In this document: positions 15,147 through 33,899 of the stretch, one piece after another
Numbering within the stretch: position 1 is the first letter of the stretch
Layout of the letters: each line of letters opens with the position of its first letter
Assembly (NCBI GenBank): GCA_977020255.1
Contig: CDROCS010001822.1
Location: 124,001 to 188,000, forward strand
DNA length: 64,000 nt
Origin: Obrimoposthia wandeli
Lineage: Eukaryota
Direction of reading: 5' to 3'
Made by a program: the position numbers and the translations under genes
Notes under the pieces: model-generated
Seen by the model: the letters and a program-made list of their open reading frames with translations, nothing else
What the model was told of the DNA's origin: nothing
Databases searched by the model: none

Positions 15147-15152
15147 GTAAGT
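15147..15152 (+). promoter_or_regulatory. Major 5' splice donor of the LTR leader
   Basis: TATTG|GTAAGT, a perfect consensus; the equivalent in the solo LTR is TATTG|GTAAGA (44028). Confidence 0.7.
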
Positions 15153-15200
15153 GAGATTTGGTGAAATTTGGATTAACTTATTGTAGATCACAAGTCTATT

Positions 15201-15522
15201 GCCAATATCGTTTGAAAGAAATATCGTTAAATATTGCCAATATCGTTTGAAAGAAATATCGTTAAATTTTGCCAATATCGTTTGAAAGAAATATCGCTAA
15301 ATATTGCCAATATCGTTTGAAAGAAATATCGTTAAATATTGCCAATATCGTTTGAAAGAAATATCGTTAAATTTTGCCAATATCGTTTGAAAGAAATATC
15401 GTTAAATTTTGCCAATATCGTTTGAAAGAAATATCGTTAAATGATGCCAATATCGTTTGAAAGAAATATCGTTAAATTTTGCCAATATCGTTTGAAAGAA
15501 ATATCGCTAAATATTGCCAATA
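15201..15522 (+). repeat. 35-bp tandem repeat in 5' LTR, 9 full copies plus a partial
   Basis: Unit GCCAATATCGTTTGAAAGAAATATCGTTAAAT(A/T)TT starts at 15201, 15236 ... 15481. Confidence 0.97.
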
Positions 15523-15623
15523 CATTGTTAAAAGAAGCCGATCGTCGCAATATTCCCAAACTACCTACGGATCCTGTACCGGAATTTCAAGCAGCATATA
15601 GGTAAGAACACCGACTAAAGCAT

Positions 15624-16060
15624 TCATTGCCCCTAGTTGGCAATTAGGATACATTCATTGCCCCTTGTTGGTAATTCGAAATTGTAATATATTTTAACCA
15701 TATTCATTGTCCCTAGCTGACAATTAGGATTGCTGTCTCTTTAACCAAATCATTGTCCCTAGTTGACAATTAGGATTGTCCATTTTATTCATTGTCCCCA
15801 GTTGACAATTAGGAATTGTACGAGTTTTTTCCCGTAAGATTCATTGTCTCTAGCTGACAATTCGGTTCACTCATTGTCCCTAGTTGACAATTCGGAACAA
15901 ATACTCATTGTCCCTAGTTAACAATTCGGTCCACTCATTGTCCCTAGTTGACAATTCGGAACCAACACTCATTGTCCTAGTTGACAATTCGGAGTAAGTT
16001 TTCATTGTCATCGTTGACAATTAGGTTTTTAGGAGAATCATTGTCCACAGTGGACAATTC
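15624..16060 (+). repeat. Array of 12 short palindromic units TC-ATTGTC-n6/7-GACAAT
   Basis: Units at 15626, 15657, 15706, 15752, 15791, 15843, 15873, 15907, 15937, 15971, 16004 and 16040. Confidence 0.9.
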
Positions 16061-16329
16061 GTGGTTAAATACACAACAGATAGAGTTACGGATTCAAGAA
16101 ACTTTATCCACACATAAGAAGTTGAGTCGAAGAAATTTAAGAGGGTTGCGTTATAGATTAACCAACCTAGGAAGAAGAATAACCCTAAAATCTCGATCAC
16201 CCGAACGTAAAATCGATACGTGGTTCATCCCCACTTCTTGTAGAGACTTACAGAAGTCTTAGGAATTTTACCATACTTTTTAGAGATACGTACATAAACG
16301 TATTGTTGTGTTTAGTTACGTGAATTACC

Positions 16330-16335
16330 AATAAA
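16330..16335 (+). terminator. LTR polyadenylation signal (functional copy expected at 37787-37792)
   Basis: The only AATAAA I found downstream of the TATA box in this LTR; conserved in the solo LTR (~45729). Confidence 0.6.
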
Positions 16336-16548
16336 CAATTTCCTACATTAGAACAAGTTGTTTTTGCACCCTTCAGAATAAGAGACATCGAATCAAATAC
16401 CTTCAGATAGTACAAGAGATAGGCAACCATAACACTAAGTAGGCCACGACCAACTTTAAGACCTGCTTCTAATCGAACTCACGTTGGGGCCCTCCGCATT
16501 TCAGAGGATCTGTACCAAGTTTCGTATAGAAACCCCAACATATTAAAG

Positions 16549-16566
16549 TGGTGCCCCGAGTGAGGA
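16549..16566 (+). other. Primer-binding site complementary to the 3' end of elongator tRNA-Met
   Basis: TGGTGCCCCGAGTGAGGA vs the complement of vertebrate elongator tRNA-Met 3' end (recalled) TGGTGCCCCGTGTGAGGA: one mismatch. Separated from the LTR by TATTAAAG. Confidence 0.8.
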
Positions 16567-17455: not shown

Positions 17456-17991
17456 AGTAAATTTGATAAAGTGAGAATCGAGTGGATTGATACTCGAAGT
17501 AATTAATTGAATAGGTTAAGTCGGGAGACTCTGTCCTCGAACTAATTAAAGAGATAAAAAATCGTAAAATAAGAATTGTGAAATAAGATAAAAATAATAA
17601 GTAAATTGATATCGTAAACGAATACATAATTGATAAGACAACGGATAATAGAAAAGGACCCGCGTATAATACTAGAAGACAAAGTCAGATTCCCAAGGAA
17701 GAGATAAATAATAATAAAGTTAACCGAATTGAACAGGTTCCCCAAACAGATAACAAAGTAACAGAAAAGACTAGAGTCGAAGAAAACGTATCAGAAAGAG
17801 ACGTAAATCAATCAGCAGTTTCAACCGATAGTTTTGATCTGACTGAGTTATTTGGTGACATAAACCCAGAAGAAATTGATAATCTTGAAGTTCAAAACCC
17901 AGAAGAAATTGAAATTGCCAATCCAGTAGTGATTGAAGAAGTTCAAGTAAATAATATTGAAGGAATAGTTGAAGACGATATAGTTGAAGAT

Positions 17992-18687
17992 ATGGCTCAC
18001 CAAGGAGCTCCACCAGATATTAATGCAGGAAATAATGTAGGTGAAATGAATGCCGAGCAGTTGGCACAAGCTTTAAATGCGACGTTGAGACCCAATTTTT
18101 CAGGATCATTGCAGATTACAAAGTTTAAAGGAGATGAGGAAAGTATTTGTGACTTCCTCGCAGAATATTCGAGTTGTGCAGATGTTCAAGGATGGAACGA
18201 TAAAGAAAAATGTGTCAGAGTACAGGCACATTTAACCGGATTAGCACTTGAAGTGTATAAACATTTGACAGAAGCAGAACGCATAGATTGGCCAACGTTG
18301 GAAAATGCTTTTATTGGAAAATTGGTATTAGGAGACTTAGCCAAAGTAAATAAGCGACTCATGAGAGAACGGAAACAGAAACATGATGAAGGCGTGAACG
18401 AATACGCGTATGTTTTGAGAACCTTGGCCGCAAGAGCGTACCCAAGAAGAATAATGAGAAATCAGGACGGTAATCCTGTAGCTCCAGAAGCACAAGCAGC
18501 GGAAAATGACCGGAACCAAAATGAAATGGCAGAGGTTTTGTTAGATATATTTAGAGGAGGATTGAAAAAGGATATTAAAGTGTTATTAGCAGTATCGGAT
18601 ACAAACGATTTTGATAACGCCGTACGAAAGGCGAGAGAGATTGAGAAAAATATAAAAATAATGCAGCATTGGCAATTTACGCAATGA
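17992..18687 (+). CDS. gag: Gag capsid portion; the frame is open from 17605 without an ATG; probably continuous with the large ORF
   Basis: ITKFKGDEESICDFLAEY...GWND...LTGLALEVY...WPTLENAF...QKHDEGVNEYAYVLRTLAARAYP...IFRGGL is a typical Ty3/gypsy capsid. Confidence 0.88.
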   Translation: MAHQGAPPDINAGNNVGEMNAEQLAQALNATLRPNFSGSLQITKFKGDEESICDFLAEYSSCADVQGWNDKEKCVRVQAHLTGLALEVYKHLTEAERIDWPTLENAFIGKLVLGDLAKVNKRLMRERKQKHDEGVNEYAYVLRTLAARAYPRRIMRNQDGNPVAPEAQAAENDRNQNEMAEVLLDIFRGGLKKDIKVLLAVSDTNDFDNAVRKAREIEKNIKIMQHWQFTQ

Positions 18688-21600
18688 CTGCAGGTGACGA
18701 CGATAAAACAAAGGTATTTGTGAATAAAACAGAACCGAGTAATTTTCAGAATCGAAATTATGGACAAAATAAGTTCGAAAAAGTAGATGAATCCAGTAAC
18801 GGAAATAGAGATAATTTCCGAAGTAGGAATCGAGATGATTCGAGAGGTAGAAATAATAGTGAGTCTTGGAACAGGAATCGAGATGATTCAAGAGGTAGAA
18901 ATAATAATGATTCGTGGAATAGAAATAGAGATGATTCCAGGAATAGATTTAATAGAGATAATTCAGGAAATCGCCAACCTTGGAGAGGAGACGATAGGAA
19001 TTATAACGCCAACAGAGGAGAGCGAAGTGACTCTCGATTTGGAAATAATACAGGAAATAGCGACGGAAGATTCAATAATCGAGGAAGCGGTTTTGAATCG
19101 AATTTCCGAAGAAATTATTTTAGAGGGCGCTATGATAATAGACAGAATAGTCGTCGAGTACAGTTCGAAGATGAACAAAATAAGATAGATATTCGAGGGA
19201 GAATAATGTGTTACACGTGTAAGCAAATGGGTCACTATTCGAGAGATTGTACGAGAAGTAAAGAGTTCGGAACTAACAGATTTGGAAATAATAATTTCGG
19301 TAATAATAATTTTGGAAATAATTATAGAGGATATAATTCACCTCCGCCATGGAATAGAGGTGGTGGATATACTCCACAGCCATGGAGACCGAATAATCAG
19401 TATACAGATAGACAACAGTCACCAGGTAGATACAATAACTATGCAGACAGACAGCAAGGAGCTGAGAGATACAATAATTACGTAGGACAGCAAGGAGCTG
19501 AGAGATATAATAATTCTGGTAGATATAATAATAATAATGTCGACAAGACAAATAGTCGTGAGAGTTCGCCGAAACCGAAAGGAAATTTCAGTTATGTAAG
19601 CGATGACAGTGATAGGAATCGCGAGACCGAACTTCGACGCGAAATAGATTTTGAAGATAGTGATAGTAAATTTGAACGAATGTTGGGAATAATTAAAGAT
19701 TCACCACATACAAAGATGGCAAATTCATCTACGTTGTCGAAACAAGAAAAAAGTCTACACTCGAGAGAAGATATGAATGATTTAATGAATAAAATACTAG
19801 AAGCGTATGAGACACCAATAGAGAAAACGTGTAACGCACAACCGATGATTGAGCATGTAGAAGCAGCGAGAAATGCTACGAGTATGGAAAATGTAAAAAA
19901 GATAATTAGTGAAGCTAAGGAGACGTTAAATCAACCGTTAGATGAAACGAGTGAAGCTCCAGAAGTTTTGGCCAAATTACAAACAATTAAAGTGCACCGA
20001 TTGGAAGAAGTGCGTGCAGAATTGGTTAAACATAGTCATGATAACTTGGATTACAAAGAAGTACCACGAGGATTATTGAAAGGTTATGGTCGTTACGTAC
20101 AGAGATCAAACCAAAAAGGAACGATGAAAATTTCACTTCGATTAATTTCCGGACAGATAATACATGAAAAACTTAACGTGTATCAAACAATGAAAACGAT
20201 TCGGAAAAAGTTAGCCGAGAAACTTGAAATTGATGGAATGAATATGTTGTTCCATTATAAAGGGAGATCACTAGATGATGAGGACGTACCAGTCGAGTGT
20301 GGATATCCGATAGGAAATGAATTAGAGGAAAAAATTGATGTCATCACTGTAGGACGTCAAGAGTTAGTAGATAATGAAGGATTAACGGAGATATTGAATT
20401 CTGCGTTAGAAATGATAAAAACGCCTATAGAAATTTTAGACAGTTCAAGCGAAAGCGGAGATAATGATGTAGCTGAAGCTTGGAACAAGACATCCACACC
20501 AGAACCGTACGTAGCTGAATTACAAGATATGAATTTAGAAAATGAGTTGACAACTCCAGTGGTCGAGGTGCCACCAGAACCAGATATAATTCAAATCAGA
20601 CAAGATGAAGTCACGGATACAGCTAACCAAGTGCGACAAAACGAAACCGTAACCCAACTAGTAGGAGAAGACGAAGTCTCCGAGATTGTAGATTTGGATT
20701 CACCAATTTGGCATGCCGCATACAGAGATAGACAAGCAGAGCAAATGATGCGACAAAATGAAGAGATTGGCCATGAAGAAGGACCAAGTCACGAGATACA
20801 GTATAATGGTGAACCGTATGATCCAGGAGAGAATCAAACTGAGTATCAGTATTTTCGAAGAGGACCTGGAAGACCTAGAAAAGGCGAAAGTATATTACGA
20901 AATGTTCTAACTGCACCACAAACTGATGAAGAGAGACATCTAAGTATTGGACAGTTAGCAGCGTCATTAGAGCAGTATAGTGCAGAGAGGAATGAAGATA
21001 TCAGAGGTGATATGAATTCGGAAACTCCAAGTAGTAAAGATATACTTACGGGAATTCTCAGGCAAGTGAAGCCGAAGTTGTTTAAAATGTACAGAGATGA
21101 AACAACCGATATAACAGACAATTTGACTAAAGCAGTTAGATCACAAATGTCTGCAGTAAAGAGAATGACTGCGAATCATGTATACCATGCATCCATAGAT
21201 AGATTCTATGACGGTGAAGTTTTAGCGAGATTATGTGGAAACCAAACTACAAATAAAAAGTTAATTACAGCGATCACATATCTATGTTTCCAATTGACGG
21301 AACGAACGAGCCAACCTCACGAAGTCAAACAAGGAATAAATGAAGCGATGTATTTGATCGAGAATGTATTACAGAGACGAATTGACGAAAATGGAGGTTG
21401 GGCAAAATTAAGTGACTACGCTAAAACCATTTTGGAAATGAATGAAGACGATGACGAACAATGTCATGAGAATCGTCAAAAGGAAAATAAACAATACCGT
21501 CCGAAAGAGAGAAACAATCAACCAAATATGTCCACAACAATGATGATGATGATGTTAGTAATGTTTATGGGAATGCAACAGGCATCAGGATTGATAGCAT

Positions 21601-24600
21601 ATGACTGTAGCATACCAAAGATGGGACAAAAGTATTCACTGCTTGACAGCGAAGACTGTCCAGAGTCACAGCCGTCAAAATTAGAAGTTAAAGGTGTTGA
21701 AAACTACTTTGTGTATCAGGATGTTGATAAAGTACAAGTAGAAGTGAAAGAATGTTCAATCCATTCAAGTTATCACGAATTCTATTGTGGCCATAGAAGT
21801 TTTATGTCAGAAATTACACCTACCACACCGTACAAGGCACATAAGGTTTTGCCGAGAGATTGCGAAGACGCATTTCGAACGGGAACAATAGAGGTAGACA
21901 AGAATTACAAACCTGATGTAAAAATTGGAGTGAGACGATACGAAACAGTCACGAGAGTCGGACAACGATGGGCTGATGGATCTTGTAACGGAGGAACAAA
22001 AAACGTACGTGGAACCAAAGTAACTGCGTTAGTAATGGACGTAACTTACAAAATCGAATTAAAAACATGGACCGCCAATTTTGATAAAAAGACACAACTA
22101 ATGATGACGTATCCAGAATGTAAAATGACAGATACATCTTGTTTTACAGGCGAATCCACAATTGTGTATCAAGTGAATCCGAAGCAATGCTCTTTAGTAT
22201 TTTTGAAAGAGATTAGTTTTAATAAAATAAAAGGATTCCTGTATAATAGAGATGGAGAAGGATTCCTGTATAATAAAGTTGGAAAAGGATTGCTCAATGA
22301 AACAAGACCAATCCCAATGACAAAAACACCTACACTGTTAATGGCAACATCAATAGAAGAAGGATTGATATTTATTAAAAAGAGAAACAAGACGCGATGC
22401 GGAATGACTGTTAGTACTACAAACTATCCAGGAATAGTTTTGTCCAAAGAAGCAATAGCATTGGCAGAAACCAAGCTAAAACCAAAAAATATGCAGCTAC
22501 ACACGTATTTTAGTAATAAAATTGATTTCTATTATCATAAAGGATTGATGCAAATGGAACAGTTATATCGAATGATGATCGAAAGAGATTGCCAGCTAAA
22601 CAAAGAGATCGTAAGAACAAAGTTAGCATTAGCTATTACGAATCCAGACATGGTAGCACCATTATTACCCTTGGATGAAGGAGTATTTGCTAAAACCATG
22701 GGAGAAGTATTGTATACTTACAAGTGTAATAAAGTAGAAGTACAGTTGAGAACAACAAACCGATGTACGAGTGAATTGGCAGTAACGTATAATTTAAAAG
22801 ATCTTTTTGTTGAACCAATCACGAGAATGATACTTCCAAAAGACACTCCAACTAAAGAAATCAGCTGCTCTAATATAATGGCACCTGAATATCAGATGAC
22901 GAATGATTTATGGATAACGTTACCTGATCGAAAGCCAACGAAAACCCCAGCGATGATAAGAATGACGAATCTTAAAGGTAAAATGAAATTCCAAGCGGTG
23001 GAAAATATGGAGAACGCAGGATTGTACAATGAAAAAGATTTAAAAGCGGCGTGGAACGAAATAATGTTTCCAGTAAAAAGAGCCAGAGTACTTACGGAGA
23101 TGGTACATCGAGCATTACCGCCAGGAGCGAGATATGCGAATTTCGATATGTTATTATCGCCAAGTCATTTCAAGGAAGCAGCACATCAGACACTTAGAAA
23201 GATGTGGGGGAAATTCCTTGTTTTAGGACAATTATTTTCGGGTATCATAGGTATTTATGTTATAATTAAATTTGTGCAGGTAATTATAGCCCAGGTGTTG
23301 TCTACGTATAGTTTATACAGGATAACCGGAATCACCTGGCAACTTATAATTGGATGTTTTCCATTTTTAGCAAAATATCTAATGCACCATCATCACGAGA
23401 ACGAGTTGCGAGCCCTCAAGAAGGAACAACACCAAACGAGAACCATGATGCGAGAACCAAGAAACTATCGAGACGACAACGACGACGATAATGATAGTCC
23501 AGGAGTATATGCAAAGATACCCGGAAAACCAAAGATTCCGTTACCAGACAAGGAAGAAGTGGCGTTAAACCTATATCCAATGAAGGAACTAAAGGAGGAG
23601 AAGGAAAAGTTCAAGAGAGGCATCTTAATGATAAGATGGCCTAAAGTGAGCTACAGTGAGATTCCACAAGCAGAGGAAAAAGACAAAAAAGATAATTCCA
23701 GAAGAATTCTGAAGTCTAGGATATCAAATGAGAATCCAAATGCTCCACCACAAGTAGCAGTAACATTAAACGGAAGAGAATATCTTGCCGAAGTTGATAC
23801 CGGATCTGCAGTATCAGTACTGAGTAAAGAAATCTTGTCATCAAAAGAATTAAGAGAAGTATGTCCTAGAAAACAGACATTTGTTAACGTGAATGGTACA
23901 GATGTAGTGTCGGAAGGAACACTGAAATGTTCGTTGAATATCGATGGAAGAGCATTGCAGTTAAATGCTAGAATATTCACAGATTGCGGTAGTCCAGTCA
24001 TGATTTGGATGGACGTAATACGAATGTTTGAAGGAATAATTATACTACCAAACAACAAGAGTTATAAGAATGACAGTTCAGTGAGAGAGATAAAAATGTT
24101 GAGAGGACCTATAGTCGAAAAGGAAAAATACACTACGTTCCGTATGGGAAATTCGTACCAAGACAAAAAACAGGAAGCGCTAGTAAAGTCGATACTTCAC
24201 TACAAAAACGTAAACCTCGGACCACAAGAGATGACGAGGAGAAAAATAACATATGTGAATCTGTCAGAAAGGGATCCCATGAGATTCGAGAGAAAGAGAC
24301 GAAATATATTAGAACTGTACTATTCAAAAGAAATGGCACGTAAAATGGCAAGATCAGGTTTAGAAATGTTAAATGCGACAAGCAGTTATGGTCATGAGAT
24401 AGTAGTACGATGCGTATGGTGTAGAGTAAAGTTTAGAGAGTGGGAAAAGAATGAAAACCCAATGAGACGTCATAAAAGAGATGCACCAAATTGTCCATTT
24501 CTTTTAAAACTGAAAACTTCAAACGTACCAGAAATCCAAACGGGAAAAGTACCCGATTTCGATTACAGTGACGGGATTCCAAAAGGAGAATCAGCTCTAA

Positions 24601-27600
24601 TAACAGGTAGAGTAATAACAAATAGCCGAATTGAAGATATATTCGAAGTTATGCGAGAAGTGAACGAATGTGACGAACAGTATCGAGAAGTAACTTTCGA
24701 AGACCCAAGACTTAAAAAATTGGCAAAAAAGGGACTTTTTGCTATAAAAAAGGATGGTAAAGACGTAATTAAATGCCACAAGTGTAAAAAAGAACGAATT
24801 ATCGACAGATATACTCTTGAGCTACCTAATAAAATTTTACATCATGAATTTTGCGAGTTTGGTATGTTAAAAAACAAAATAAAGCAAAAAGAACAGAAAA
24901 CCGAATGTATAATCGAATACCAAATCACACGAAAAGAGATTTTGGCTCAACAAGACACACCAGTAGTGTCATTCGTGAGAAGGTTATATCCAAAAGAAGC
25001 AGAAAGAATCAGAGAATTGGTAGAATTAAAAATAAAAACTACGCGAAACGGATACGGATCGATTTTTGAATTACTGCGAGATAAAGATGACAGTACAATT
25101 GAAACAAAAGAGAAAGAGTACATAAATGAACTAGAATACGTACTAGAAGATCCGGAATGCGCAGTTTGCATGGTCAACAAAATAGAAGTTGCCTTTCTAC
25201 CATGCGGACATGTAAGAACATGTCGGAGATGTGCGAATGAAATGGTATCATGTCCGATTTGTCGAAGAATAATAGATCGACAAGTGAGAAACATTAGATT
25301 TCACTATCCAAACATAGGAAGTGGACTGACAGAGTGTAATAATTCGATAAATACAATATACCATATGGGAAACATAAATGGAGCACAGCGACCAGCAGCT
25401 ATCATTAGAGTAAATAATTTAAGAGTAAAAGCCTTAATTGATACAGGTGCTGTAGCTTCGATAGTAAGTGAAGACTGTTTGACAGAGGAACAGAAACGAA
25501 CAATGGCAGAACCAGATGAATTCTTGGTATCGGTCAATGGAGACCCTGTAAAAGTGACGGGAATATTACCATGTACATTTATAATTGGACGTAATACGAT
25601 CACTATACCAGTTAGAATCATGAAAGAATGTCCTGAACCTACAATTTTAGGAATGGATGTACTATCACAACTTAAAGGGATAAGTATTGATTTACAAGAT
25701 CCAAGATTGAAGGATAGCACATCAAACAGACAAATAAACCAAATTGATGTAATTATAGAGAATCCTATAAAAATCGGTAAAAGATCACAATTTCTCATTC
25801 AAGGTCACACATTATCAGAAGATAAAGGACCAGTTGTGTTCGAACCATCACGAGATTTCATAGAGAAATACGAATTACCAGTTGTGAGTACAGTATGCCT
25901 GATCGAAAACCACAAAATACCAGTTAGACTGATGAATACAACCAACAATGACATTCTATTATACAGAGGAATGAGGTTGGGAAAGATAGCACAGATGGAG
26001 AATCCCACCGTGTGTGCTACGAAACTCGATAAAGATACGAATGATTACGAAGAAATAGTAATCCAATCAGAAAGACTGACAACTAGAGAAAAGAAACAAT
26101 TACTTGATCTAATACATAAATTTCCGAAAGTAATTGCAAAAAATCCATATGACATAGGAGAAACACCTGTCATAAAACATACAATACCACTGACAGAAGA
26201 CAAAGTAGTCAGAAGAAGACCATATCGAGTACCATTACAATTACAAGATGAAGTAAAAAGTCAGATTGAAGATATGTCTAAAACAGGAGTAATTAGACCG
26301 AGTTTTTCGCCATTCTCAGCACCTGTGGTGTTGGTAAAAAAGAAGGATGGGAAAATGAGATTCTGTATAGATTTCAGAGAACTGAACAAGATCACAAGAA
26401 AAGATGTGTATCCATTACCTAGAATCGAAGAGATGCTCGATAAATTGGGTAATTCAGATTATTTTACGACATTAGATTTGCAGAGTGGATACTGGCAAAT
26501 CGAGATAGAGGAAGAGGACAAACACAAAACAGCCTTTTCCTGCGGAGATGGACTGTACGAATGCGAAAAGATGCCATTCGGACTGACAGGAGCTCCAGCA
26601 ACATTTCAGCGTTGCATGAATTTTGTACTCGCATCGTGTGCAAACACGATGGTTTATATTGATGACATAATAATATTTTCGAAAACGTTCGAAGAACATT
26701 TAAAAAATCTTGAAGTTGTATTTAAAAGACTGGAAAACGCTAAATTAAAAGTTAAACCTACAAAATGCGAATGGGCTAAAGAGCGAGTAACATTTTTAGG
26801 ACATATAGTATCGAAAGAAGGCATTCGTCCTGATCCGGCAAAGATCGAGAAAGTAAAAGCGCATTTAGCGCCAAAGACTGTTAAGGAGATACAGAGTTTT
26901 TTAGGTCTTGCGAATTATTACAGACGATTTGTTGAACATTTTTCAGATATAGCAACACCATTGAGAAAGTTGACGAGGAAAGATGAGAAGTTCATATGGG
27001 GAGAAGAAGCCCAACAAGCATTCGAGCATTTAAAAGAAAGACTGATAAAAGAACCAATATTAGCGTTTCCAGATATAAACCGACAATTCATACTCATGAC
27101 AGATGCAAGTAACTATGCTGTAGGAGCAGTATTGGGACAAGAGGATGACGAAGGAAGAGAACACGTCATCGCGTATGCGAGTAGAGGATTAAACAGAGCC
27201 GAAAGAGGATACTCTGTTATCGAAAAGGAATGTCTAGCCATAGTGTATTCATGTAGACAGTACAGACACTACTTGCTAGGACAAAAAGTATTCCTGTATA
27301 CAGATCACAAACCACTACAGTTCTTATATAAACATAGAGATGAGATGAGTAGATTAAACAGATGGTTTCTAAAATTGGCCGAATTCGATCTAGAAATCCG
27401 TTATAGAACCGGAAAGTCGAATGGCAACGCAGATTGTTTATCGAGATTGACAAATGTAGATGAAAAAGGAAACATAATTCCAGAGGAAAAACAAGATGAA
27501 ACCAATGACCAAAAAGGAGAAGCAAATCTACTGACGATTTTGCTAAAGACGGTTAAAATAGACAAAGAGATCATCAAAGAACAGAAAGAAGATGAAGAAC

Positions 27601-30600
27601 TGAGTCTAATCAAAGAATTGTTGGTGAAAGGAGATCTAAACGATGAAATGACGAAAAAATACTCGATAAAAGAAGGAATCTTGTATATTGTCAATAATGT
27701 CGGAAAGATAGTAGTAGTAATTCCGAAGTCATTGAAAACAGCAGTGATGATCCAGTATCACGACGGAACACTAGGAGGACATCTGTCAGGGCGAAAGACA
27801 ATAGCCAGAATCAAAGAGAAGTACCATTGGGATGGTATGGAAGACGACATAAAACAATGGTGTAAACAATGTAAAGTATGTTTAACCAGAAAAGACACTG
27901 GAACTCGTACTAAAGTTCCACTGAAACCAATGCCAGTTCCCTTGGCACCAATGGAATTCATAGCGATGGATATATTGGGACCATTGAGAGAATCAAGTAA
28001 AGGAAACAAGTACGTCATAGTATTTACGGATTACATGACGAGATGGGTAGAAGCATATCCCATGCAAAACCAGAAGGCTGAAACAATAGCACAAATCTTA
28101 GTGGAAGAGATAATATTTCGATACGGAGTGCCTAGAAAGTTGTTAACGGATCAAGGTAAGAACTTCACTGGAGAAGTCATAAAAGCAGTATCGAAGATAT
28201 TCGGAATCATGAAGTTACAAACTTCACCATATCACCCACAGACAGATGGTCTGGTAGAAAGGTTTAATAAAACTTTATGTATGATGGTACAATCCTATTG
28301 CTCCGACAAGCAAGAGGATTGGGATAAATATTTACCTTCATGTTTATATGCTTACAGGAATTCAGTTCGAGAGGCGACGGGTCACACACCATTCTATCTG
28401 ATGTATCTCAGACAGAACAATATGCCGATGGATCTGGAGTGGACCGAGCCAACATCTCAGTATCTAGAAACTGAACAATACATTGTCGTCATGAAGGAAA
28501 GATTACAAGATGCTTGGACCAAAGCCGGATTGAAGTTGAAATTCAATCAAGAAGGTTACAAGGAACAATACGACAAAAAAGCAAAACCACATGAATTTAG
28601 AGTCGGAGATCAAGTGATGATATTTTATCCAGTCATCGAACCAGGTCTATTGTTTAAACTTCATAGACCATACAAAGGACCATACAAGGTGATCCAGACA
28701 ACCTCAACAAATTTGAAAGTAATCAACGAAGAGAATCGGAACAAGGAACCGATGATTGTACATGCAAATCGATGCAAATTAGTACCAAATAAAGATAATG
28801 CGTCACGATATGAGTTAAGATCACAGAAATCGAAATCGAATACCAATACCATTAAACTTACACGAATGGTAAGTGATCGGAACTACATAAACATGATGAC
28901 GAGTGGTAGCGAGAAAAAACCAGCGAGAATTGGTATGCTCAGAATGAAGTACCAAGAGGAAAAGGAAGTAATCCGACACATCGCACCACAAGAGATATTA
29001 GAAGAAGACGAAGAGATAATAGTCGTTTTCGAAAAAACACAACCCACAGATGTGGCTAAAGAAGTCATTGTGAAAGATGCACTGACAAACGAATTTCTGT
29101 GCGAACTTAGAGTGTCATACTACGACGGAAATACATTAGTCGCAGCACTATATCAAAACTCCAATGTGTTTACGACTGAGAAAGTGCTAATCGAAATCAC
29201 ATTGACACCAAACATAGTTGCATGGCAGAACTATGACAGTACTGAAGCAGGACTAGCCAGTCAGGAAGAGAAGGAACCGGCCGGTGGTCACATACTGCAT
29301 GGTACACCAAAAAGACTTAAACAAGAATACCCCGATGTAATAATGGTATTACGTAATTCACATGGGAAAAGAGATATCATGAGAGTCCATTTAATCGACG
29401 CTGATACTGAAAAGATAATTTGTCAGATGGATACTAAATACTTTGATGGAAAGACAATTGTATGTTGTATACCAGAATCTCACCGGTTAGACACAGATCA
29501 AACGGAAGTATCTGTAAGGTTGAGCGTAATAGAAGGATTCCATTCGCCAACCCATCCGGAAGTGACTAACAATAAAATCATCAAAGCAACGGCAGAGTTA
29601 CGCATTGACAGCGGATACCGGAAGTGGGAAGCTAAAAATAAAAAACCACAAAGAATCAATATGATCCGAGAACAAGTGACCAACTCAATCCAGCCAAAAT
29701 ATCATGCTGAAATAGTATCATCCGCGCCAAGTGTGATCACATCGATAAACGACGAAATTATAATTTTACTAAAAAATCGATGGCCGTCATCAACTGAGAT
29801 ACGAGTAAACTTAATTAATTATGCGAAGACACCGATATCTAAGCTGAATGTTACCTATTTCGATGGATTGTCCATCATGGGTAAATTAGAAACAATTGTC
29901 ATGTGCTATGGAGCACAGTTCCAAGTTGAGATACTTAAAGATAGTGTAATACCGTATCCGATTCACAAATACGAAGGGAAAATCAATCCAATTATTCTAA
30001 CCCCTTCATTAATTTCAGTTCAGACAGACATACCAGAATACCCTTCGAGCGAGTCTAGTGAAGACAGCGAACCAGAAAGTAACGATACAGAATCAACAGA
30101 ATCCGAAGATAACATAATAGAGCGATTCGGAAGAACCATGGAGGTTGAATTCGCTAAAGAGAGCAGAAAAAGACAAAACATAGAATTCGTGAAACAGAAT
30201 ATACAAGAAAGACGAATTAAATCTGCAGAAGAGACCGAGTCGGAAGAAGACTCAACAAAGGAACAGACATCAGAGACAAAGATGAATATCTCTCCAGCAA
30301 TACGAATGCTGAGAGGAAAGAAACTGGCGAAACTATCCAACATCGACGAACAAATAGAGAAGAGATTAGAAAGACTAAAACTTGAAGAGTCAGAATTAAT
30401 GCCACCAATGAGTGAGATCATAACAGGTAAGTTATACCTCGGAAATGTGGAGGATGCAACAGATGAAAAGAAACTGTTGGAACAAGGGATAACATACGTG
30501 ATCAACGTTACAATGAATCACAAATCGCAATATCAGACGATCAGAGCTATGACATTAAGAGTAAAAGACTCAATGGACGCTAATCTTCTCGAATGGTTTG

Positions 30601-33600
30601 TAGAAACAAACGAAATACTTCACAGAGAACTCCGGAACCAAGGAAAAGTGTTGGTACATTGTCAGAAAGGAATTTCTCGATCAGCAACTCTAGTATTAGC
30701 ATACCTAATAAAGACTAGACGAATGCAGGTACTAGAAGCGCTAAAATACCTACAGGAGAGAAGAAGTATTGCAAACCCAAATCTTAATTTTTTGGGACAG
30801 TTGGCAAATTACCAACTTCTGTTGCAAGAACAAAGACGGATGGACAACATTCCTGAGGATCCAAAGGAAAAGAATTTCCTCCAAGCATTATCATTGACCG
30901 GGTTATTCTTAGCCGGAGTCGACAAAATTACACAGATAATGCCAAAAGTATTTTTATGTCATCCAGGAGATATAGATACTGCTGGATTAAAGTTCCACAG
31001 TATCAACCGAGTAATCAACATTGTTGAAGTAGGAAACGAGATAATTAGTCTGTGTCAAAATACTGAAGATGACACCACTCGATACATACATGCTTCCAAT
31101 CGAGAAATAAACGATGCACAACAACATCTGACGAAATTGACTCAAACCATCCAAGCTGAAGTCACAGAAGGAAACGGCGTTCTGATATATCAGAAAAAAG
31201 GTACAATGTTAGCGCCTACCATAGGTGTATCCTTGTTGGTAGAGTACCATGGTCACACGCCAGAAGAAGCGATGGTCTACATCAAACAGAATAGACCAAA
31301 TACGGAATTCAAACCGTTACTCGTTCGAGAAATAGAGAAATACACCGAAAAGAGGAAGCAACAACGAGAAACAAATGAAGCTACAACAACAGTGCCCAGC
31401 TTTCAATACCAAAGATTGTTAGCAATAGGCTTGTTAAGTTGTCTAATGCCGATAACGGGAGCACAAGAAATAGGCTCCAACCACGGAAATAGTTCCTGGT
31501 TCAACGAAATCCACAACTACACCATACAGTACCATACGCCGGCACTGATGATGCTATTAGTGTTGTTAGGACTAATTGATGTGTGGATCATCCGAAAATG
31601 TCTTCGATCCATGAGAACCGACAGTAAAAGATTTCAGTTTGTAAAGATGAAAAGACCAAATGGACCAACGAACAAAGTGCTTGTGTATCTAGACGAAAGG
31701 ATCGAGGACAACATAGTAAATGAAGCGATATTTTACCCACAAAACAGAATACTGAATCAATTCCGAATAGATTACGAAGCTGACCGACAGCGCACACTTG
31801 ACCGAATATCAACAACATTCGCCGGATGCAAGCGAAGAAAACGAGTTGTAAAGGAAATACAAAAAGATGCTGATACAAAAGGACCAACGTATATATTCGA
31901 CGGCGATGTCATCAAAACACGTGAGTATGGAAGTAAGAGAGTGATAATTGAAACGATGGAAGGACATAAAACATGCTTCGGAAAGTTGACGATACAAGGT
32001 AACCCGGTACAGTTAATTATCGGAAAAAATGGAATCGAGGAGATGTCAAAACAACGACAGATAACAAAACGATCTAATCAGAAACAGATATCTCTCAAAC
32101 GATTGATAATTAAAACCCTTTGCAAAAGGTCAGTCAAGGCCCTGTGCACCGTTGCACAAGGATTGATTTATGGAGTAGTAATTGGATTGGTACTGCAAGC
32201 CATGCCAACCAGTAAAGCCGAATTGATGACACTATCCGAATATAATTTACATTTGAGAAATCTAGACAACACCCTAGAAATAATCAAGACATCCCACAGT
32301 AAAGCCGTGATGATCATGTGTGTAAAAGGATGTCCAGGACGAATGTGTATAGTCCCAGCGACCGAAATGATAACACTTAATGGACATTATGGAATTAGTG
32401 TTGTCACATGTGAAGACTACATATTTGGACAAACTAAAATAGTACTTCTCAGTGACATGTCCAACCAAAGTGCACACAAATTTAAAATATTAACCATCAA
32501 GAGTAAAGGAATACCAGCAGTACGTTACGGTATTCTAGAATTGGTTAATCCAATACTTGCACTGATCATTGGACTCATAATATTAATATTACTCATCTTG
32601 TTTTGTTGTACAAAGATAGAGTTGAGATCAAAAAAGAAGCGTCATGATCTCGCAAGACGAACAGGTCAAATGAACTTACAAAAATTCAACACAATTATAC
32701 CAAGACCACCATTTCTAGATGAACCAGCACCGGAGTACCAGCCAACGATATATGAACATATCGAGGAAAGACCGTACTATATGAGTAATTTGACTTGTTT
32801 CATTGAAGTTCCTGAGTTTAGGAATCGAACGATCATAGGAATCATGCTGATCATACAAATCACCACTACCAAGGCTAGTTATGAGATCATGATCAGTAAA
32901 TGGAGACAAGACGTAATACGGGCAGTATACATAGAAATCGCCCTTCTAAAAACAAATCACGTAGTAGACATTCATCTACAGACGTCAGCAACTGACAATA
33001 TCGATCAGAAATTGTATGTCATCCGACAGGTCAGAATAAAAATCGACCAAAGTACACCCGATTACAATTTAATATTATTATATCATGAAAGAGTGTTATA
33101 CCTACGGATAACAATATCAAAGAGGAAGCGGATTATCCAAAGTATCCGAACAAAGTCATTAATATTGCCTAGAGATGAGCGCATCTGGAAAATTGTCGAC
33201 AGGATTATGATCACAGGTAGACGACGTAAAGCCGTATGGAATTCCGTTAGGATATTTTTCAGATTGCTAGAAACCGACAGAGTAACAGTAATGTGTCCCA
33301 ACTCAGATGGCGGAATCAGATTCGAAATCCAAAGCCAAATGTTAGTACCACATTTTAACACAGAATGTCTGTGTAATCGAATTTCCAGTAATACTACAGA
33401 GACCTCGACCATAATCATGATAATAACAGGTGAAATATTCTACATAACTCTAAGATACCAGAACCGTCGATTTCGTAGATCCGGTATAAGTATCAAACCC
33501 AGGAAAATCATTCCCAAAAGACCAATCCTAGTCAAAAAGAAGGCAAAGGTAATCGAAAGTAAACGCCATTCCAAAAAACCGACAGTGATCAGAACAAAGA

Positions 33601-33899
33601 CAGAAGCGAAAGAAAAAGAGCTCAATTCCAGAAACCAAAGTACAATTATTAAGAGGACAAGAGTGAGGGGAACGATCCCACTAGATCCCAAACATCATTT
33701 CCAATCCAAAATAATAATACCTGTTCCATCAGAAACAAAACACCCAAATCCAAGAATTTTTAGAAAATCGGACATAATACATGGAAATCGATCAAAACCC
33801 ATGGAAATGTCATTCGAACCGACAAACAACAAAATGAAGTATGATTATAAATCATCAGACAACGGAATAACAGCGGTCAATGCTCTAATGTTCTATTGA
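18669..33899 (+). CDS. pol: 5,076-aa Gag(NC)-accessory-Env-Pol-accessory polyprotein; the frame opens at 18645
   Basis: Uninterrupted 15.2-kb ORF with the CCHC, protease, RT (YIDD), RNase H and integrase motifs plus the cargo domains listed separately. Confidence 0.96.
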   Translation: MAIYAMTAGDDDKTKVFVNKTEPSNFQNRNYGQNKFEKVDESSNGNRDNFRSRNRDDSRGRNNSESWNRNRDDSRGRNNNDSWNRNRDDSRNRFNRDNSGNRQPWRGDDRNYNANRGERSDSRFGNNTGNSDGRFNNRGSGFESNFRRNYFRGRYDNRQNSRRVQFEDEQNKIDIRGRIMCYTCKQMGHYSRDCTRSKEFGTNRFGNNNFGNNNFGNNYRGYNSPPPWNRGGGYTPQPWRPNNQYTDRQQSPGRYNNYADRQQGAERYNNYVGQQGAERYNNSGRYNNNNVDKTNSRESSPKPKGNFSYVSDDSDRNRETELRREIDFEDSDSKFERMLGIIKDSPHTKMANSSTLSKQEKSLHSREDMNDLMNKILEAYETPIEKTCNAQPMIEHVEAARNATSMENVKKIISEAKETLNQPLDETSEAPEVLAKLQTIKVHRLEEVRAELVKHSHDNLDYKEVPRGLLKGYGRYVQRSNQKGTMKISLRLISGQIIHEKLNVYQTMKTIRKKLAEKLEIDGMNMLFHYKGRSLDDEDVPVECGYPIGNELEEKIDVITVGRQELVDNEGLTEILNSALEMIKTPIEILDSSSESGDNDVAEAWNKTSTPEPYVAELQDMNLENELTTPVVEVPPEPDIIQIRQDEVTDTANQVRQNETVTQLVGEDEVSEIVDLDSPIWHAAYRDRQAEQMMRQNEEIGHEEGPSHEIQYNGEPYDPGENQTEYQYFRRGPGRPRKGESILRNVLTAPQTDEERHLSIGQLAASLEQYSAERNEDIRGDMNSETPSSKDILTGILRQVKPKLFKMYRDETTDITDNLTKAVRSQMSAVKRMTANHVYHASIDRFYDGEVLARLCGNQTTNKKLITAITYLCFQLTERTSQPHEVKQGINEAMYLIENVLQRRIDENGGWAKLSDYAKTILEMNEDDDEQCHENRQKENKQYRPKERNNQPNMSTTMMMMMLVMFMGMQQASGLIAYDCSIPKMGQKYSLLDSEDCPESQPSKLEVKGVENYFVYQDVDKVQVEVKECSIHSSYHEFYCGHRSFMSEITPTTPYKAHKVLPRDCEDAFRTGTIEVDKNYKPDVKIGVRRYETVTRVGQRWADGSCNGGTKNVRGTKVTALVMDVTYKIELKTWTANFDKKTQLMMTYPECKMTDTSCFTGESTIVYQVNPKQCSLVFLKEISFNKIKGFLYNRDGEGFLYNKVGKGLLNETRPIPMTKTPTLLMATSIEEGLIFIKKRNKTRCGMTVSTTNYPGIVLSKEAIALAETKLKPKNMQLHTYFSNKIDFYYHKGLMQMEQLYRMMIERDCQLNKEIVRTKLALAITNPDMVAPLLPLDEGVFAKTMGEVLYTYKCNKVEVQLRTTNRCTSELAVTYNLKDLFVEPITRMILPKDTPTKEISCSNIMAPEYQMTNDLWITLPDRKPTKTPAMIRMTNLKGKMKFQAVENMENAGLYNEKDLKAAWNEIMFPVKRARVLTEMVHRALPPGARYANFDMLLSPSHFKEAAHQTLRKMWGKFLVLGQLFSGIIGIYVIIKFVQVIIAQVLSTYSLYRITGITWQLIIGCFPFLAKYLMHHHHENELRALKKEQHQTRTMMREPRNYRDDNDDDNDSPGVYAKIPGKPKIPLPDKEEVALNLYPMKELKEEKEKFKRGILMIRWPKVSYSEIPQAEEKDKKDNSRRILKSRISNENPNAPPQVAVTLNGREYLAEVDTGSAVSVLSKEILSSKELREVCPRKQTFVNVNGTDVVSEGTLKCSLNIDGRALQLNARIFTDCGSPVMIWMDVIRMFEGIIILPNNKSYKNDSSVREIKMLRGPIVEKEKYTTFRMGNSYQDKKQEALVKSILHYKNVNLGPQEMTRRKITYVNLSERDPMRFERKRRNILELYYSKEMARKMARSGLEMLNATSSYGHEIVVRCVWCRVKFREWEKNENPMRRHKRDAPNCPFLLKLKTSNVPEIQTGKVPDFDYSDGIPKGESALITGRVITNSRIEDIFEVMREVNECDEQYREVTFEDPRLKKLAKKGLFAIKKDGKDVIKCHKCKKERIIDRYTLELPNKILHHEFCEFGMLKNKIKQKEQKTECIIEYQITRKEILAQQDTPVVSFVRRLYPKEAERIRELVELKIKTTRNGYGSIFELLRDKDDSTIETKEKEYINELEYVLEDPECAVCMVNKIEVAFLPCGHVRTCRRCANEMVSCPICRRIIDRQVRNIRFHYPNIGSGLTECNNSINTIYHMGNINGAQRPAAIIRVNNLRVKALIDTGAVASIVSEDCLTEEQKRTMAEPDEFLVSVNGDPVKVTGILPCTFIIGRNTITIPVRIMKECPEPTILGMDVLSQLKGISIDLQDPRLKDSTSNRQINQIDVIIENPIKIGKRSQFLIQGHTLSEDKGPVVFEPSRDFIEKYELPVVSTVCLIENHKIPVRLMNTTNNDILLYRGMRLGKIAQMENPTVCATKLDKDTNDYEEIVIQSERLTTREKKQLLDLIHKFPKVIAKNPYDIGETPVIKHTIPLTEDKVVRRRPYRVPLQLQDEVKSQIEDMSKTGVIRPSFSPFSAPVVLVKKKDGKMRFCIDFRELNKITRKDVYPLPRIEEMLDKLGNSDYFTTLDLQSGYWQIEIEEEDKHKTAFSCGDGLYECEKMPFGLTGAPATFQRCMNFVLASCANTMVYIDDIIIFSKTFEEHLKNLEVVFKRLENAKLKVKPTKCEWAKERVTFLGHIVSKEGIRPDPAKIEKVKAHLAPKTVKEIQSFLGLANYYRRFVEHFSDIATPLRKLTRKDEKFIWGEEAQQAFEHLKERLIKEPILAFPDINRQFILMTDASNYAVGAVLGQEDDEGREHVIAYASRGLNRAERGYSVIEKECLAIVYSCRQYRHYLLGQKVFLYTDHKPLQFLYKHRDEMSRLNRWFLKLAEFDLEIRYRTGKSNGNADCLSRLTNVDEKGNIIPEEKQDETNDQKGEANLLTILLKTVKIDKEIIKEQKEDEELSLIKELLVKGDLNDEMTKKYSIKEGILYIVNNVGKIVVVIPKSLKTAVMIQYHDGTLGGHLSGRKTIARIKEKYHWDGMEDDIKQWCKQCKVCLTRKDTGTRTKVPLKPMPVPLAPMEFIAMDILGPLRESSKGNKYVIVFTDYMTRWVEAYPMQNQKAETIAQILVEEIIFRYGVPRKLLTDQGKNFTGEVIKAVSKIFGIMKLQTSPYHPQTDGLVERFNKTLCMMVQSYCSDKQEDWDKYLPSCLYAYRNSVREATGHTPFYLMYLRQNNMPMDLEWTEPTSQYLETEQYIVVMKERLQDAWTKAGLKLKFNQEGYKEQYDKKAKPHEFRVGDQVMIFYPVIEPGLLFKLHRPYKGPYKVIQTTSTNLKVINEENRNKEPMIVHANRCKLVPNKDNASRYELRSQKSKSNTNTIKLTRMVSDRNYINMMTSGSEKKPARIGMLRMKYQEEKEVIRHIAPQEILEEDEEIIVVFEKTQPTDVAKEVIVKDALTNEFLCELRVSYYDGNTLVAALYQNSNVFTTEKVLIEITLTPNIVAWQNYDSTEAGLASQEEKEPAGGHILHGTPKRLKQEYPDVIMVLRNSHGKRDIMRVHLIDADTEKIICQMDTKYFDGKTIVCCIPESHRLDTDQTEVSVRLSVIEGFHSPTHPEVTNNKIIKATAELRIDSGYRKWEAKNKKPQRINMIREQVTNSIQPKYHAEIVSSAPSVITSINDEIIILLKNRWPSSTEIRVNLINYAKTPISKLNVTYFDGLSIMGKLETIVMCYGAQFQVEILKDSVIPYPIHKYEGKINPIILTPSLISVQTDIPEYPSSESSEDSEPESNDTESTESEDNIIERFGRTMEVEFAKESRKRQNIEFVKQNIQERRIKSAEETESEEDSTKEQTSETKMNISPAIRMLRGKKLAKLSNIDEQIEKRLERLKLEESELMPPMSEIITGKLYLGNVEDATDEKKLLEQGITYVINVTMNHKSQYQTIRAMTLRVKDSMDANLLEWFVETNEILHRELRNQGKVLVHCQKGISRSATLVLAYLIKTRRMQVLEALKYLQERRSIANPNLNFLGQLANYQLLLQEQRRMDNIPEDPKEKNFLQALSLTGLFLAGVDKITQIMPKVFLCHPGDIDTAGLKFHSINRVINIVEVGNEIISLCQNTEDDTTRYIHASNREINDAQQHLTKLTQTIQAEVTEGNGVLIYQKKGTMLAPTIGVSLLVEYHGHTPEEAMVYIKQNRPNTEFKPLLVREIEKYTEKRKQQRETNEATTTVPSFQYQRLLAIGLLSCLMPITGAQEIGSNHGNSSWFNEIHNYTIQYHTPALMMLLVLLGLIDVWIIRKCLRSMRTDSKRFQFVKMKRPNGPTNKVLVYLDERIEDNIVNEAIFYPQNRILNQFRIDYEADRQRTLDRISTTFAGCKRRKRVVKEIQKDADTKGPTYIFDGDVIKTREYGSKRVIIETMEGHKTCFGKLTIQGNPVQLIIGKNGIEEMSKQRQITKRSNQKQISLKRLIIKTLCKRSVKALCTVAQGLIYGVVIGLVLQAMPTSKAELMTLSEYNLHLRNLDNTLEIIKTSHSKAVMIMCVKGCPGRMCIVPATEMITLNGHYGISVVTCEDYIFGQTKIVLLSDMSNQSAHKFKILTIKSKGIPAVRYGILELVNPILALIIGLIILILLILFCCTKIELRSKKKRHDLARRTGQMNLQKFNTIIPRPPFLDEPAPEYQPTIYEHIEERPYYMSNLTCFIEVPEFRNRTIIGIMLIIQITTTKASYEIMISKWRQDVIRAVYIEIALLKTNHVVDIHLQTSATDNIDQKLYVIRQVRIKIDQSTPDYNLILLYHERVLYLRITISKRKRIIQSIRTKSLILPRDERIWKIVDRIMITGRRRKAVWNSVRIFFRLLETDRVTVMCPNSDGGIRFEIQSQMLVPHFNTECLCNRISSNTTETSTIIMIITGEIFYITLRYQNRRFRRSGISIKPRKIIPKRPILVKKKAKVIESKRHSKKPTVIRTKTEAKEKELNSRNQSTIIKRTRVRGTIPLDPKHHFQSKIIIPVPSETKHPNPRIFRKSDIIHGNRSKPMEMSFEPTNNKMKYDYKSSDNGITAVNALMFY
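19209..19250 (+). other. CCHC zinc knuckle (nucleocapsid)
   Basis: CYTCKQMGHYSRDC within an R/N/D/G-rich region. Confidence 0.95.
20124..20354 (+). other. Ubiquitin/SUMO-like domain in polyprotein
   Basis: MKISLRLISGQIIHEKLNVYQTMKTIRKKLAEKLEIDGMNMLFHYKGRSLDDED follows the beta-grasp pattern; no C-terminal GG. Confidence 0.7.
21030..21440 (+). other. Bcl-2-like helical domain (divergent)
   Basis: BH2-like RRIDENGGWAKLSDY; the BH1-equivalent helix TTNKKLITAITYLCFQL lacks NWGR. Confidence 0.55.
21528..23384 (+). other. env: Internal signal peptide plus chuvirus-type viral envelope glycoprotein with C-terminal membrane segments
   Basis: MSTTMMMMMLVMFMGMQQASG|LIAYDC...YSLLDSEDC; Cys-rich ectodomain with N-glycosylation sequons; KIDFYYHK...CQL; GEVLYTYKC; W-GKFLVLGQLFSGIIGIYVIIKF...YSLYRITGITW. 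This matches the recalled pattern of chuvirus-like glycoproteins. Confidence 0.78.
23745..24047 (+). other. Aspartic protease copy 1 (DTG intact, ILG motif altered to MIW)
   Basis: AEVDTGSAVSVLS at 23796; PVMIWMDVI at ~24000. Confidence 0.88.
24279..24506 (+). other. BIR domain (canonical CX2C-X16-H-X6-C)
   Basis: MARSGL...VRCVWCRVKFREWEKNENPMRRHKRDAPNCPFL. Confidence 0.92.
24687..24863 (+). other. Second, degenerate BIR-like domain
   Basis: LAKKGLF...DVIKCHKCKKE...HHEFCEF. Confidence 0.6.
25158..25290 (+). other. IAP-type C3HC4 RING finger
   Basis: CAVCMVNKIEVAFLPCGHVRTCRRCANEMVSCPICRRII. Confidence 0.93.
25389..25700 (+). other. Aspartic protease copy 2 (canonical)
   Basis: KALIDTGAVASIVS at 25440; PTILGMDVL at 25644. 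Confidence 0.93.
25755..25990 (+). other. dUTPase-like remnant between protease and RT
   Basis: IPVRLMNTTNNDILLYRGMRLGKI resembles the dUTPase-fold C-terminal strands found in many animal gypsy elements. Confidence 0.45.
26151..26813 (+). other. Reverse transcriptase core
   Basis: SPFSAPVVLVKKKDG, RFCIDFRELN, LDLQSGYWQ, MPFGLTGAPATFQR, YIDD (26655). Confidence 0.98.
27087..27449 (+). other. RNase H
   Basis: TDASNYAVGAVL, YSVIEKECLAIV, TDHKPL, NADCLSR. Confidence 0.96.
27720..28823 (+). other. Integrase (HHCC, DDE core, GPY/F module)
   Basis: YHDGTLGGH...CKQCKVC; MDILGP; TDQG; DGLVERFN; GPYKV; ends RYELRS. Confidence 0.96.
28947..29942 (+). other. Three ~85-aa beta-rich repeats, Ig/IPT(TIG)-like
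   Basis: Shared pattern I..xP..I....E(V/I)I(I/V)xL.N......V.L.......I..L...Y(Y/F)DG.T(L/I): SYYDGNTLV, KYFDGKTIV, TYFDGLSIM. Confidence 0.55.
30408..30830 (+). other. Dual-specificity protein phosphatase, catalytically intact
   Basis: LYLGN, VINVT, VKDS, VLVHCQKGISRSATLVLAYL (HCX5R at 30657), NPNLNFLGQL. Confidence 0.94.
30924..31343 (+). other. Second dual-specificity-phosphatase fold lacking catalytic residues (pseudophosphatase)
   Basis: ITQIMPKVFL...INRVINI...GVLIYQKKGTMLAPT...EEAMVYIKQNRP; HCX5R is replaced by YQKKGTML. Confidence 0.75.
31413..32765 (+). other. Membrane-protein region with alternating signal-like and transmembrane segments
   Basis: Hydrophobic stretches at 31413-31463, 31539-31592, 32139-32219 and 32532-32609; a small Cys-containing ectodomain; tail PAPEYQPTIYEHI. 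Confidence 0.6.

Follow-up and report, generated by a model that had tools for sequence, protein, structure and literature searches.

A host-type inhibitor of apoptosis module between two retropepsins of a Burro-like Gypsy polyprotein, with stand-alone relatives in Polintons of the same genome

A 23.3-kb Gypsy long terminal repeat (LTR) element in the genome of Obrimoposthia wandeli encodes, within a single open reading frame (ORF) of 5,084 aa, an IAP (inhibitor of apoptosis protein) that lies in frame between two retropepsins. The element is contained in a stretch of 64,000 nucleotides (positions 124,001 to 188,000 of contig CDROCS010001822.1, assembly GCA_977020255.1; hereafter the window, in whose coordinates all features are given). 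Our analysis favors the view that the IAP module of this polyprotein, which resembles those of the planarian Burro elements, is probably cut free by a protease of the element and probably serves as a ubiquitin ligase (E3) that keeps the host cell alive. An earlier reading of the window from its letters (the original prediction) had described a BIR, a BIR-like domain, and a RING between two protease copies, with the domains in the order of host IAPs. Both statements are borne out, the full arrangement being BIR-BIR-UBA-RING, as in host IAPs. The module and its surroundings comprise the following features:

23742..24059, + strand: PR1, a retropepsin, with VDTG at 23793 and DTG at 23796
24090..24104, + strand: IKMLR, a recurring junction motif and predicted candidate N-terminal cleavage site of the IAP
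24177..24278, + strand: N-terminal extension common to the stand-alone IAP homologs, identified by sequence homology
24279..24503, + strand: BIR1, with zinc site C-x2-C-x16-H-x6-C and a type-I-like groove (Arg1942, Asp1946)
24678..24860, + strand: BIR2, a degenerate BIR-like domain, with zinc ligands C-x2-C-x18-H-x3-C in non-canonical spacing
about 24942..25103, + strand: UBA-like domain, between BIR2 and the RING
25149..25301, + strand: RING of the XIAP/cIAP-type C3HC4 class; the last residue of cIAP1 aligns to F2219 (25299)
25305..25310, + strand: Tyr-Pro bond (Tyr2221-Pro2222), conserved, the candidate cut of the original prediction
25347..25358 (aa 2235), + strand: INTI, 31 residues before the catalytic Asp of PR2, a predicted alternative candidate cleavage site
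25386..25679, + strand: PR2, a retropepsin and the pol protease adjacent to reverse transcriptase (RT), with IDTG at 25437 and DTG at 25440

BIR1 is recognized by the Pfam BIR model (aa 1896-1953 of the ORF, E 1e-10), and its structural model matches solved BIRs with a Z of about 10 in a VIA structure search. The original prediction had the IAP begin at 24279, where BIR1 indeed starts, but homology to the stand-alone IAPs extends about 100 bases further upstream, to near 24177. It had also called this BIR canonical, which is true of the zinc site and not of the groove that binds the IAP-binding motif (IBM), in which two residues are absent. BIR2 falls below the Pfam threshold; against a profile built from 391 canonical BIRs it scores 94% in hhalign (E 1e-7), a comparison in which the interval between BIR and RING, used as a control, reaches only 0.1%. 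Pairwise BLAST of BIR1 against BIR2 is not significant (E 0.12), and because none of the rows listed by the VIA search aligned BIR2 alone, the assignment rests on the profile comparison and on the ligands, which are kept in at least 73 of 75 copies and in most relatives. By these comparisons, the second BIR is real but degenerate. The UBA-like domain, absent from the original prediction, superposes on the UBA of XIAP (2kna; VIA Z 5.4, root-mean-square deviation 1.8 over 53 residues); the Z is middling, and the assignment is backed by position, by hhalign (78%), and by a weak stretch of cIAP1 similarity.

The RING is matched by Pfam zf-C3HC4_3 (aa 2169-2212, E 2.6e-11) and by cIAP1 (E 6e-12). 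It is internal in the ORF rather than at a free C-terminus, and RQVRNIRFHYPNIG, which the original prediction reported after it, is found there at 25278-25319. All zinc ligands of the IAP are kept in at least 72 of 75 copies. The alignment-based structure model is usable for BIR1, BIR2, and the UBA-like domain; its RING portion is unusable (pLDDT <50), as is the single-sequence prediction (pLDDT 33). The order BIR(s)-UBA-RING is shared with XIAP, cIAP, and DIAP2, from which the element IAP differs in the altered zinc spacing of BIR2, the type-I-like BIR1, an Ile at the position of cIAP1 Phe616, and its embedding in a polyprotein.

A 20-mer within BIR2 of the element IAP has 5,852 exact matches in the genome, and the reversed control has 0. 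Copies chosen by protein similarity give biased selection counts; instead, selection was assessed in the first 30 matches of the 20-mer by contig order, a sample from which copies with a mutated 20-mer are missing. Variants present in two or more of the 30 copies, representing lineages that kept moving, were compared with singletons. Both proteases, the UBA-like domain, and the RING are under purifying selection among copies. Shared variants in PR1 comprise 3 nonsynonymous and 25 synonymous changes (nonsynonymous to synonymous polymorphism ratio, pN/pS, 0.04; shared versus singleton, Fisher p 2e-4) and in PR2 0 and 11 (pN/pS 0; p 1e-3); ratios this near zero indicate that both proteases are maintained, which fits proteolytic release. 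The corresponding counts are 2/10 for the UBA-like domain (pN/pS 0.05) and 2/13 for the RING (pN/pS 0.04), and BIR2, UBA, and RING taken together differ between shared and singleton variants with p 3e-4. Shared-variant pN/pS is 0.27 in BIR2, 0.25 in BIR1, and 0.48 in the N-terminal extension, with singletons at 0.2-1.6. The BIR region is looser than the protease region (29/24 for the extension plus BIR1 versus 8/54 for the proteases plus the following stretch, p 2e-6); no domain has a shared-variant ratio above 1 in the 30 copies, so the looseness does not amount to evidence of positive selection. The catalytic DTG is intact in 30 of 30 copies of PR1 and in 27 of the 28 covered copies of PR2.

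Two Polinton families of the same genome hold the closest homologs of the element IAP, as judged by sequence: stand-alone IAP genes that end in a stop codon. When the genome was searched for BIRs, a survivin-like and a Bruce-like match came first, followed by two high-copy families of stand-alone frames. These are 341 and 301 aa long, end in RNIRFHSIGN-stop and RNVKFHGINN-stop, and are 34% and 38% identical to the element IAP overall and 59% in the RING. They adjoin Polinton core genes in nine of ten contexts examined (C3084 has none); the core was recognized by Pfam as DNA_pol_B_2 (pPolB), Pox_A32 (an A32-type ATPase), and an rve integrase, and a jelly-roll capsid by a capsid atlas score of 0.98 and by PF21738 on 30% of members. 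Inverted arms enclose units of 16 kb and 14.8 kb in C760 and C2440. Exact 20-mers of the two families have 1,769 and 1,038 genome matches, which are not element counts, as some derivatives hold two IAP copies; element and Polinton matches come to about 8,600 in all.

The original prediction had proposed a phylogeny of BIR and RING against other IAPs as a check, and the element IAP proves to be host-type, yet in a separate long-branched clade. In a tree of 20 rows over BIR and RING columns, including 14 other metazoan-type IAPs taken from the top library matches, one clade (100/100) unites the element IAP with both Polinton IAPs and three library proteins and sets them apart from those 14. Approximately unbiased tests reject neither element plus Polinton (p 0.16) nor element plus P0003 (p 0.18) as clades. 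No intron-bearing host ortholog of this clade surfaced among the 150, 88, and 150 candidates scored out of 12,000-20,000, a depth at which absence is not shown; genome searches with P0003 and P0070 gave only 30-35% matches among the candidates scored. A word-indexed protein search with the IAP returned nothing, as did the search among longer proteins, and otherwise only P0007 and a MYLIP-like RING appeared; a metagenome contig scan gave only four weak generic RING matches and a viral contig scan nothing. Whole-model Foldseek matches of the element IAP include IAPs of baculo-, granulo-, and nudiviruses, at 13-22% identity. Adintoviruses are described as carrying IAP and Bcl2 homologs (PMC8502044), and the Polintons of this genome are similar in carrying a stand-alone IAP of the element-IAP clade. 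The difference from Polinton and baculovirus IAPs is that here one IAP lineage is common to an LTR polyprotein and to DNA Polintons of a single genome.

One Polinton family also carries a dual-specificity phosphatase (DUSP) domain (L082:1387-2121); at 30% identity to the first DUSP of the LTR element it is too distant to show exchange. The catalytic loop of this Polinton domain is altered, and it is likely a pseudophosphatase. Polinton derivatives at G000:C609:145755-160039 (L081-L083) and G000:C777:600240-614146 (L084-L086) have 4-kb inverted arms that are 99.7-99.9% identical, each arm with one IAP gene and part of a DUSP; genes for ATPase, integrase, and capsid are present, and the arms enclose no polymerase. 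That both loci are laid out alike suggests a non-autonomous family with two copies of the IAP. At G000:C3084 (L095-L096), three tandem 7.15-kb units each contain a truncated Polinton-type BIR, and no Polinton core gene was detected nearby.

The original prediction took the duplicated protease to explain how the IAP was captured, an explanation that is not supported. PR1 and PR2 are only 27% identical, which rules out a recent duplication flanking the insert, and three related giant Gypsy polyproteins (P0011, P0014, and P0092) have four, three, and two copies of the protease and lack both a BIR and an IAP-type RING; the clade thus tends to have extra proteases, and nothing links the duplication to the capture. 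P0014 has the same layout with other cargo in the slot: env, then a protease, then a stretch that reads as C2H2-like in the sequence and has no Pfam match, and finally the pol protease. The interval between PR1 and PR2 is best read, from these domain layouts, as an old cargo slot of the element clade that was later occupied by the IAP. A duplication within this lineage that was linked to the IAP is possible, as the best pairwise match of PR1 among ten other proteases is PR2; the best matches of PR2 are the RT-adjacent proteases of P0014 and P0092. The protease tree is poorly supported (one of eight branches starred) and does not order the duplication. A further retropepsin copy of P0014 lies after its integrase.

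Outside the IAP region, the element has the following features:

14666..16540, + strand: 5' LTR, with TG...CA ends and a 35-bp tandem array inside
16549..16565, + strand: primer-binding-site-like sequence, directly after the 5' LTR
17605..18687, + strand: gag ORF, with a weak Retrotrans_gag match (E 0.0025)
18645..33899, + strand: polyprotein ORF of 5,084 aa, a stop-free frame of 15.3 kb
21030..21464, + strand: weak BCL2-like domain (Pfam Bcl-2 E 0.047; Kaposi's sarcoma-associated herpesvirus (KSHV) vBCL-2, 1k3k, E 0.11 over 118 residues)
21597..23480 (start approximate), + strand: env-like fusion glycoprotein of mononegavirus type (Monjiviricetes_fusion E 9e-94), placed between gag and pol in the same frame
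26334..28364, + strand: RT, RNase H, and integrase (IN) by Pfam, giving the Gypsy order PR-RT-RNase H-IN
30432..30815, + strand: first DUSP domain by Pfam, with a second, degenerate DUSP after it
35105..35656, + strand: accessory ORF with a RING-H2 finger (E 2e-8), ahead of the 3' LTR
35944..37997, + strand: 3' LTR, mismatched to the 5' LTR at 8 of 1,875 aligned bases (99.6% identity)

The LTRs begin with TG and end with CA, and a 4-bp target-site duplication (ATCT) lies on both sides; together with the near-identity of the LTR pair (8/1,875 differences), these flanks point to a recently inserted LTR element. We take the sequence at 16549..16565 to resemble the 3' end of tRNA-Met. Pfam finds in the ORF, in this order, a zinc knuckle, a ubiquitin-like domain (weak, E 0.04), env, an aspartyl protease, BIR, RING, a second protease, RT, RNase H, integrase, and two DUSPs; the BCL2-like domain sits ahead of env. 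A dUTPase-like domain after PR2 received no confirmation by Pfam, and Rfam and ARAGORN searches gave no match. In the window copy, gag and the long ORF are out of register near 18650. Across this break, 30 of the 40 matches listed are one base longer than the window copy, and gag and the zinc knuckle are in one frame in 12 of 19 sibling loci.

The element is here called Burro-like from the published description and domain order. Burro1/GYPSM1 and Burro2-4 of planarians (Jurka 2007 and Grohme 2018, as summarized in PMC6431247) occur in thousands of copies and encode polyproteins of ~5,000 aa with Ubi/SUMO-like, BCL2-like, and BIR domains and an in-frame env (PMC6431247). The present element shares with them its thousands of copies, a ~5,000-aa polyprotein with gag, an in-frame mononegavirus-like env between gag and pol, the PR-RT-RH-IN series, and a cargo of ubiquitin-like and BCL2-like domains (both weak here) and BIR, all in the same domain order. 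It differs in length (23.3 kb versus >30 kb), in the number of zinc knuckles found (one versus two or three), and in its two DUSP domains and RING-H2 ORF. There is no MATH or ankyrin Pfam match, so it is not Burro1 itself; an element of D. tigrina also has no MATH in its main ORF (PMC6431247). Section 7 of PMC6431247, which deals with Burro, does not name a second protease, a second BIR, or a UBA. The original prediction did not note that the arrangement is that of an element type already published. On loss of PIWI, Burro1 is transcribed (PMC8532177), and its B-IAP, which likewise combines BIR and RING and is carried by a giant LTR element, is reported to shield planarian stem cells against apoptosis by caspases (Lee, Poulet, Allikka Parambil, van Wolfswinkel, Dev Cell 2026, as summarized in PMC13465017). 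A literature search found no account of an IAP flanked by two proteases or shared by Burro-like elements and Polintons; Lee 2026 and Grohme 2018 were outside its scope and may cover either.

Several further observations concern the element and its surroundings. The RING-H2 accessory ORF (35105-35656) is a second candidate E3 of the element, and a Cys/His-rich stretch at ~34153-34671 has no Pfam match. A mononegavirus-type fusion glycoprotein is also found in polyproteins P0011 and P0014. The 5' leader between LTR and gag (16592-17517) contains tandem arrays of 20-51-bp units rich in GAGAATAAGTTTCAG, and the 35-bp array is present within both LTRs in differing copy number. A 340-bp fragment 8 kb downstream of the element (45603-45943) is 93% identical to the 3' end of the LTR. 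Just past the 3' LTR is an inverted repeat (38027-38740) with arms of 80 and 111 bases and 97-99% complementarity, perhaps a small DNA transposon. A 499-aa frame at 47460-48959 has an ANF_receptor ligand-binding domain (E 7e-37) and is probably an exon of a host receptor.

In the proposed mechanism, intact copies would be translated as one gag-env-pol polyprotein, and the element's own protease would cut the IAP free from between the two retropepsins. Cuts near aa 1816-1820 and 2235-2238, where junction motifs lie, would release a product of ~420 aa. The free IAP would act through ubiquitylation by its RING and UBA rather than through an IBM groove on BIR1, and would sustain the survival of the host cell during expression of the element. 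The motif [IV]-x-M-[ILM]-[RT] occurs six times in the ORF (shuffle mean 0.54; reached in 0 of 500 shuffles) and three times in P0011, between proteases (2 of 500 shuffles reach this), statistics that are partly circular, as the motif was devised after inspecting P0001 and P0011. In the ORF it sits where env meets PR1, where PR1 meets the IAP, and past the integrase. Motifs such as INTI, 31 residues before the PR2 Asp, stand 26-36 residues ahead of the Asp in five proteases of P0011 and P0014. Besides that circularity, several points weigh against the proposed mechanism. The motif has 0 matches in P0014 and P0092; a looser version, the only one that INTI fits, shows no enrichment in P0001 (reached in 68 of 500 shuffles). 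The position of cIAP1 Phe616, part of a tail needed for activity (PMC6349121), is Ile2217 here (Ile in 29 of 29 copies, with a Phe two residues on), and from this alignment canonical dimer-tail E3 activity is not assured. BIR1 is without two groove residues, so direct binding of caspases or IBMs appears doubtful. The window copy itself is damaged, with gag out of register and a PR1 substitution at a conserved motif position (24006-24008), and may not make the product; the substitution is seen in 0 of 30 unbiased sibling copies and in 0 of 72 siblings, and being private it means that the window copy is probably impaired and the family is not.

The original prediction instead released the IAP by a cut at Tyr2221-Pro2222, restoring a short C-terminal tail for RING dimerization, a route that now seems unlikely. 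The C-terminus of cIAP1 aligns to F2219, two residues before the bond, so that the end produced would be nearly right, as had been claimed; cIAP1 activity needs its tail (PMC6349121), and FHYP is intact and FHYPN invariant in 29 of 29 covered copies, with the next 11 residues averaging 91% conservation. However, the stand-alone homologs have a conserved natural end made up of FH and a few more residues, which explains this conservation without a cut. Nor does an exact short end seem to be required: the stand-alone relatives, of which four of six are gene predictions only, run 0, 5, 5, 6, 14, and 16 residues beyond the end of cIAP1, and tolerance of a long tail therefore seems likely. The MYLIP RING chain, too, extends 11 residues past that of cIAP1. 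The bond is also one of 19 aromatic-Pro bonds in the ORF, whereas the other motif recurs at domain junctions, and its His at P2 and Asn at P2' are presumably a poor fit to the retroviral aromatic-Pro consensus. From these comparisons, cleavage at the junction motifs is the more probable route. It is less likely still that the IAP is not freed through the polyprotein at all and stays fused to a protease or comes from its own spliced or subgenomic transcript; the stand-alone homologs show that the module can be expressed alone, but the linker between RING and PR2 is without a stop in 28 of 29 covering copies, and both proteases and both flanking junction motifs are conserved.

How the IAP would act, once released, can be read in more than one way. 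At two positions taken to line the IBM groove, BIR1 has Arg1942 (29 of 30 copies) and Asp1946 (29 of 30) where BIR3 of cIAP1 has Glu and Trp. Type I BIRs are without an IBM groove and bind signaling proteins (PMC13159474). These residues, the faster change of BIR1 and the N-terminal extension relative to the proteases (29/24 versus 8/54), and the presence of BCL2-like, DUSP, and RING-H2 cargo on the same element would suit a signaling or immune-modulating E3 (a type I BIR adaptor with a RING) or a decoy, and not mainly a caspase inhibitor. Against this stand the reported protection from caspase-mediated apoptosis by the Burro1 homolog (PMC13465017) and the selection ratios, all of which are below 1; we regard such a role as doubtful, with perhaps one chance in a few, and it can be compatible with the proposed mechanism, in which action through the RING and UBA is, from the residues present, the more likely route than the IBM groove. 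That the IAP is a neutral, decaying passenger is highly improbable. The degenerate BIR2, the damaged window copy, and BIRs that change more in amino acids than pol could be taken that way, but this view is largely refuted by the selection data, with pN/pS of 0.04-0.05 in RING and UBA and 0.25-0.27 in the BIRs and the p of 3e-4 for BIR2, UBA, and RING, and by the retention of the zinc ligands in 72 or more of 75 copies.

An IAP on a Burro-type element is already known and reportedly benefits planarian stem cells, so that the headline is not new. What the anatomy adds is a processing model open to test, in which two C-terminal cut sites compete, for a host-type E3 inside a polyprotein, and the Polinton homologs with their natural stops provide an internal standard against which tail length and function can be compared. 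What most deserves attention is that a retroelement polyprotein and Polintons share one IAP clade. Quite tentatively, the IAP lineage may have moved between two unrelated classes of mobile element, the retroelement having perhaps taken its IAP from a virus-like DNA transposon, and not from the host, into an existing slot; mobile elements may supply most or all of the RING-type IAP activity of the animal. In a 2026 survey, RING IAPs were nearly absent in the flatworms sampled (PMC13159474), and if the host is a flatworm, as its type of element suggests, the element-borne copies would be unusually important. Should the IAP have been transferred between a retroelement and a virus-like DNA element, what has been called host gene capture would become an exchange of cargo among mobile elements.

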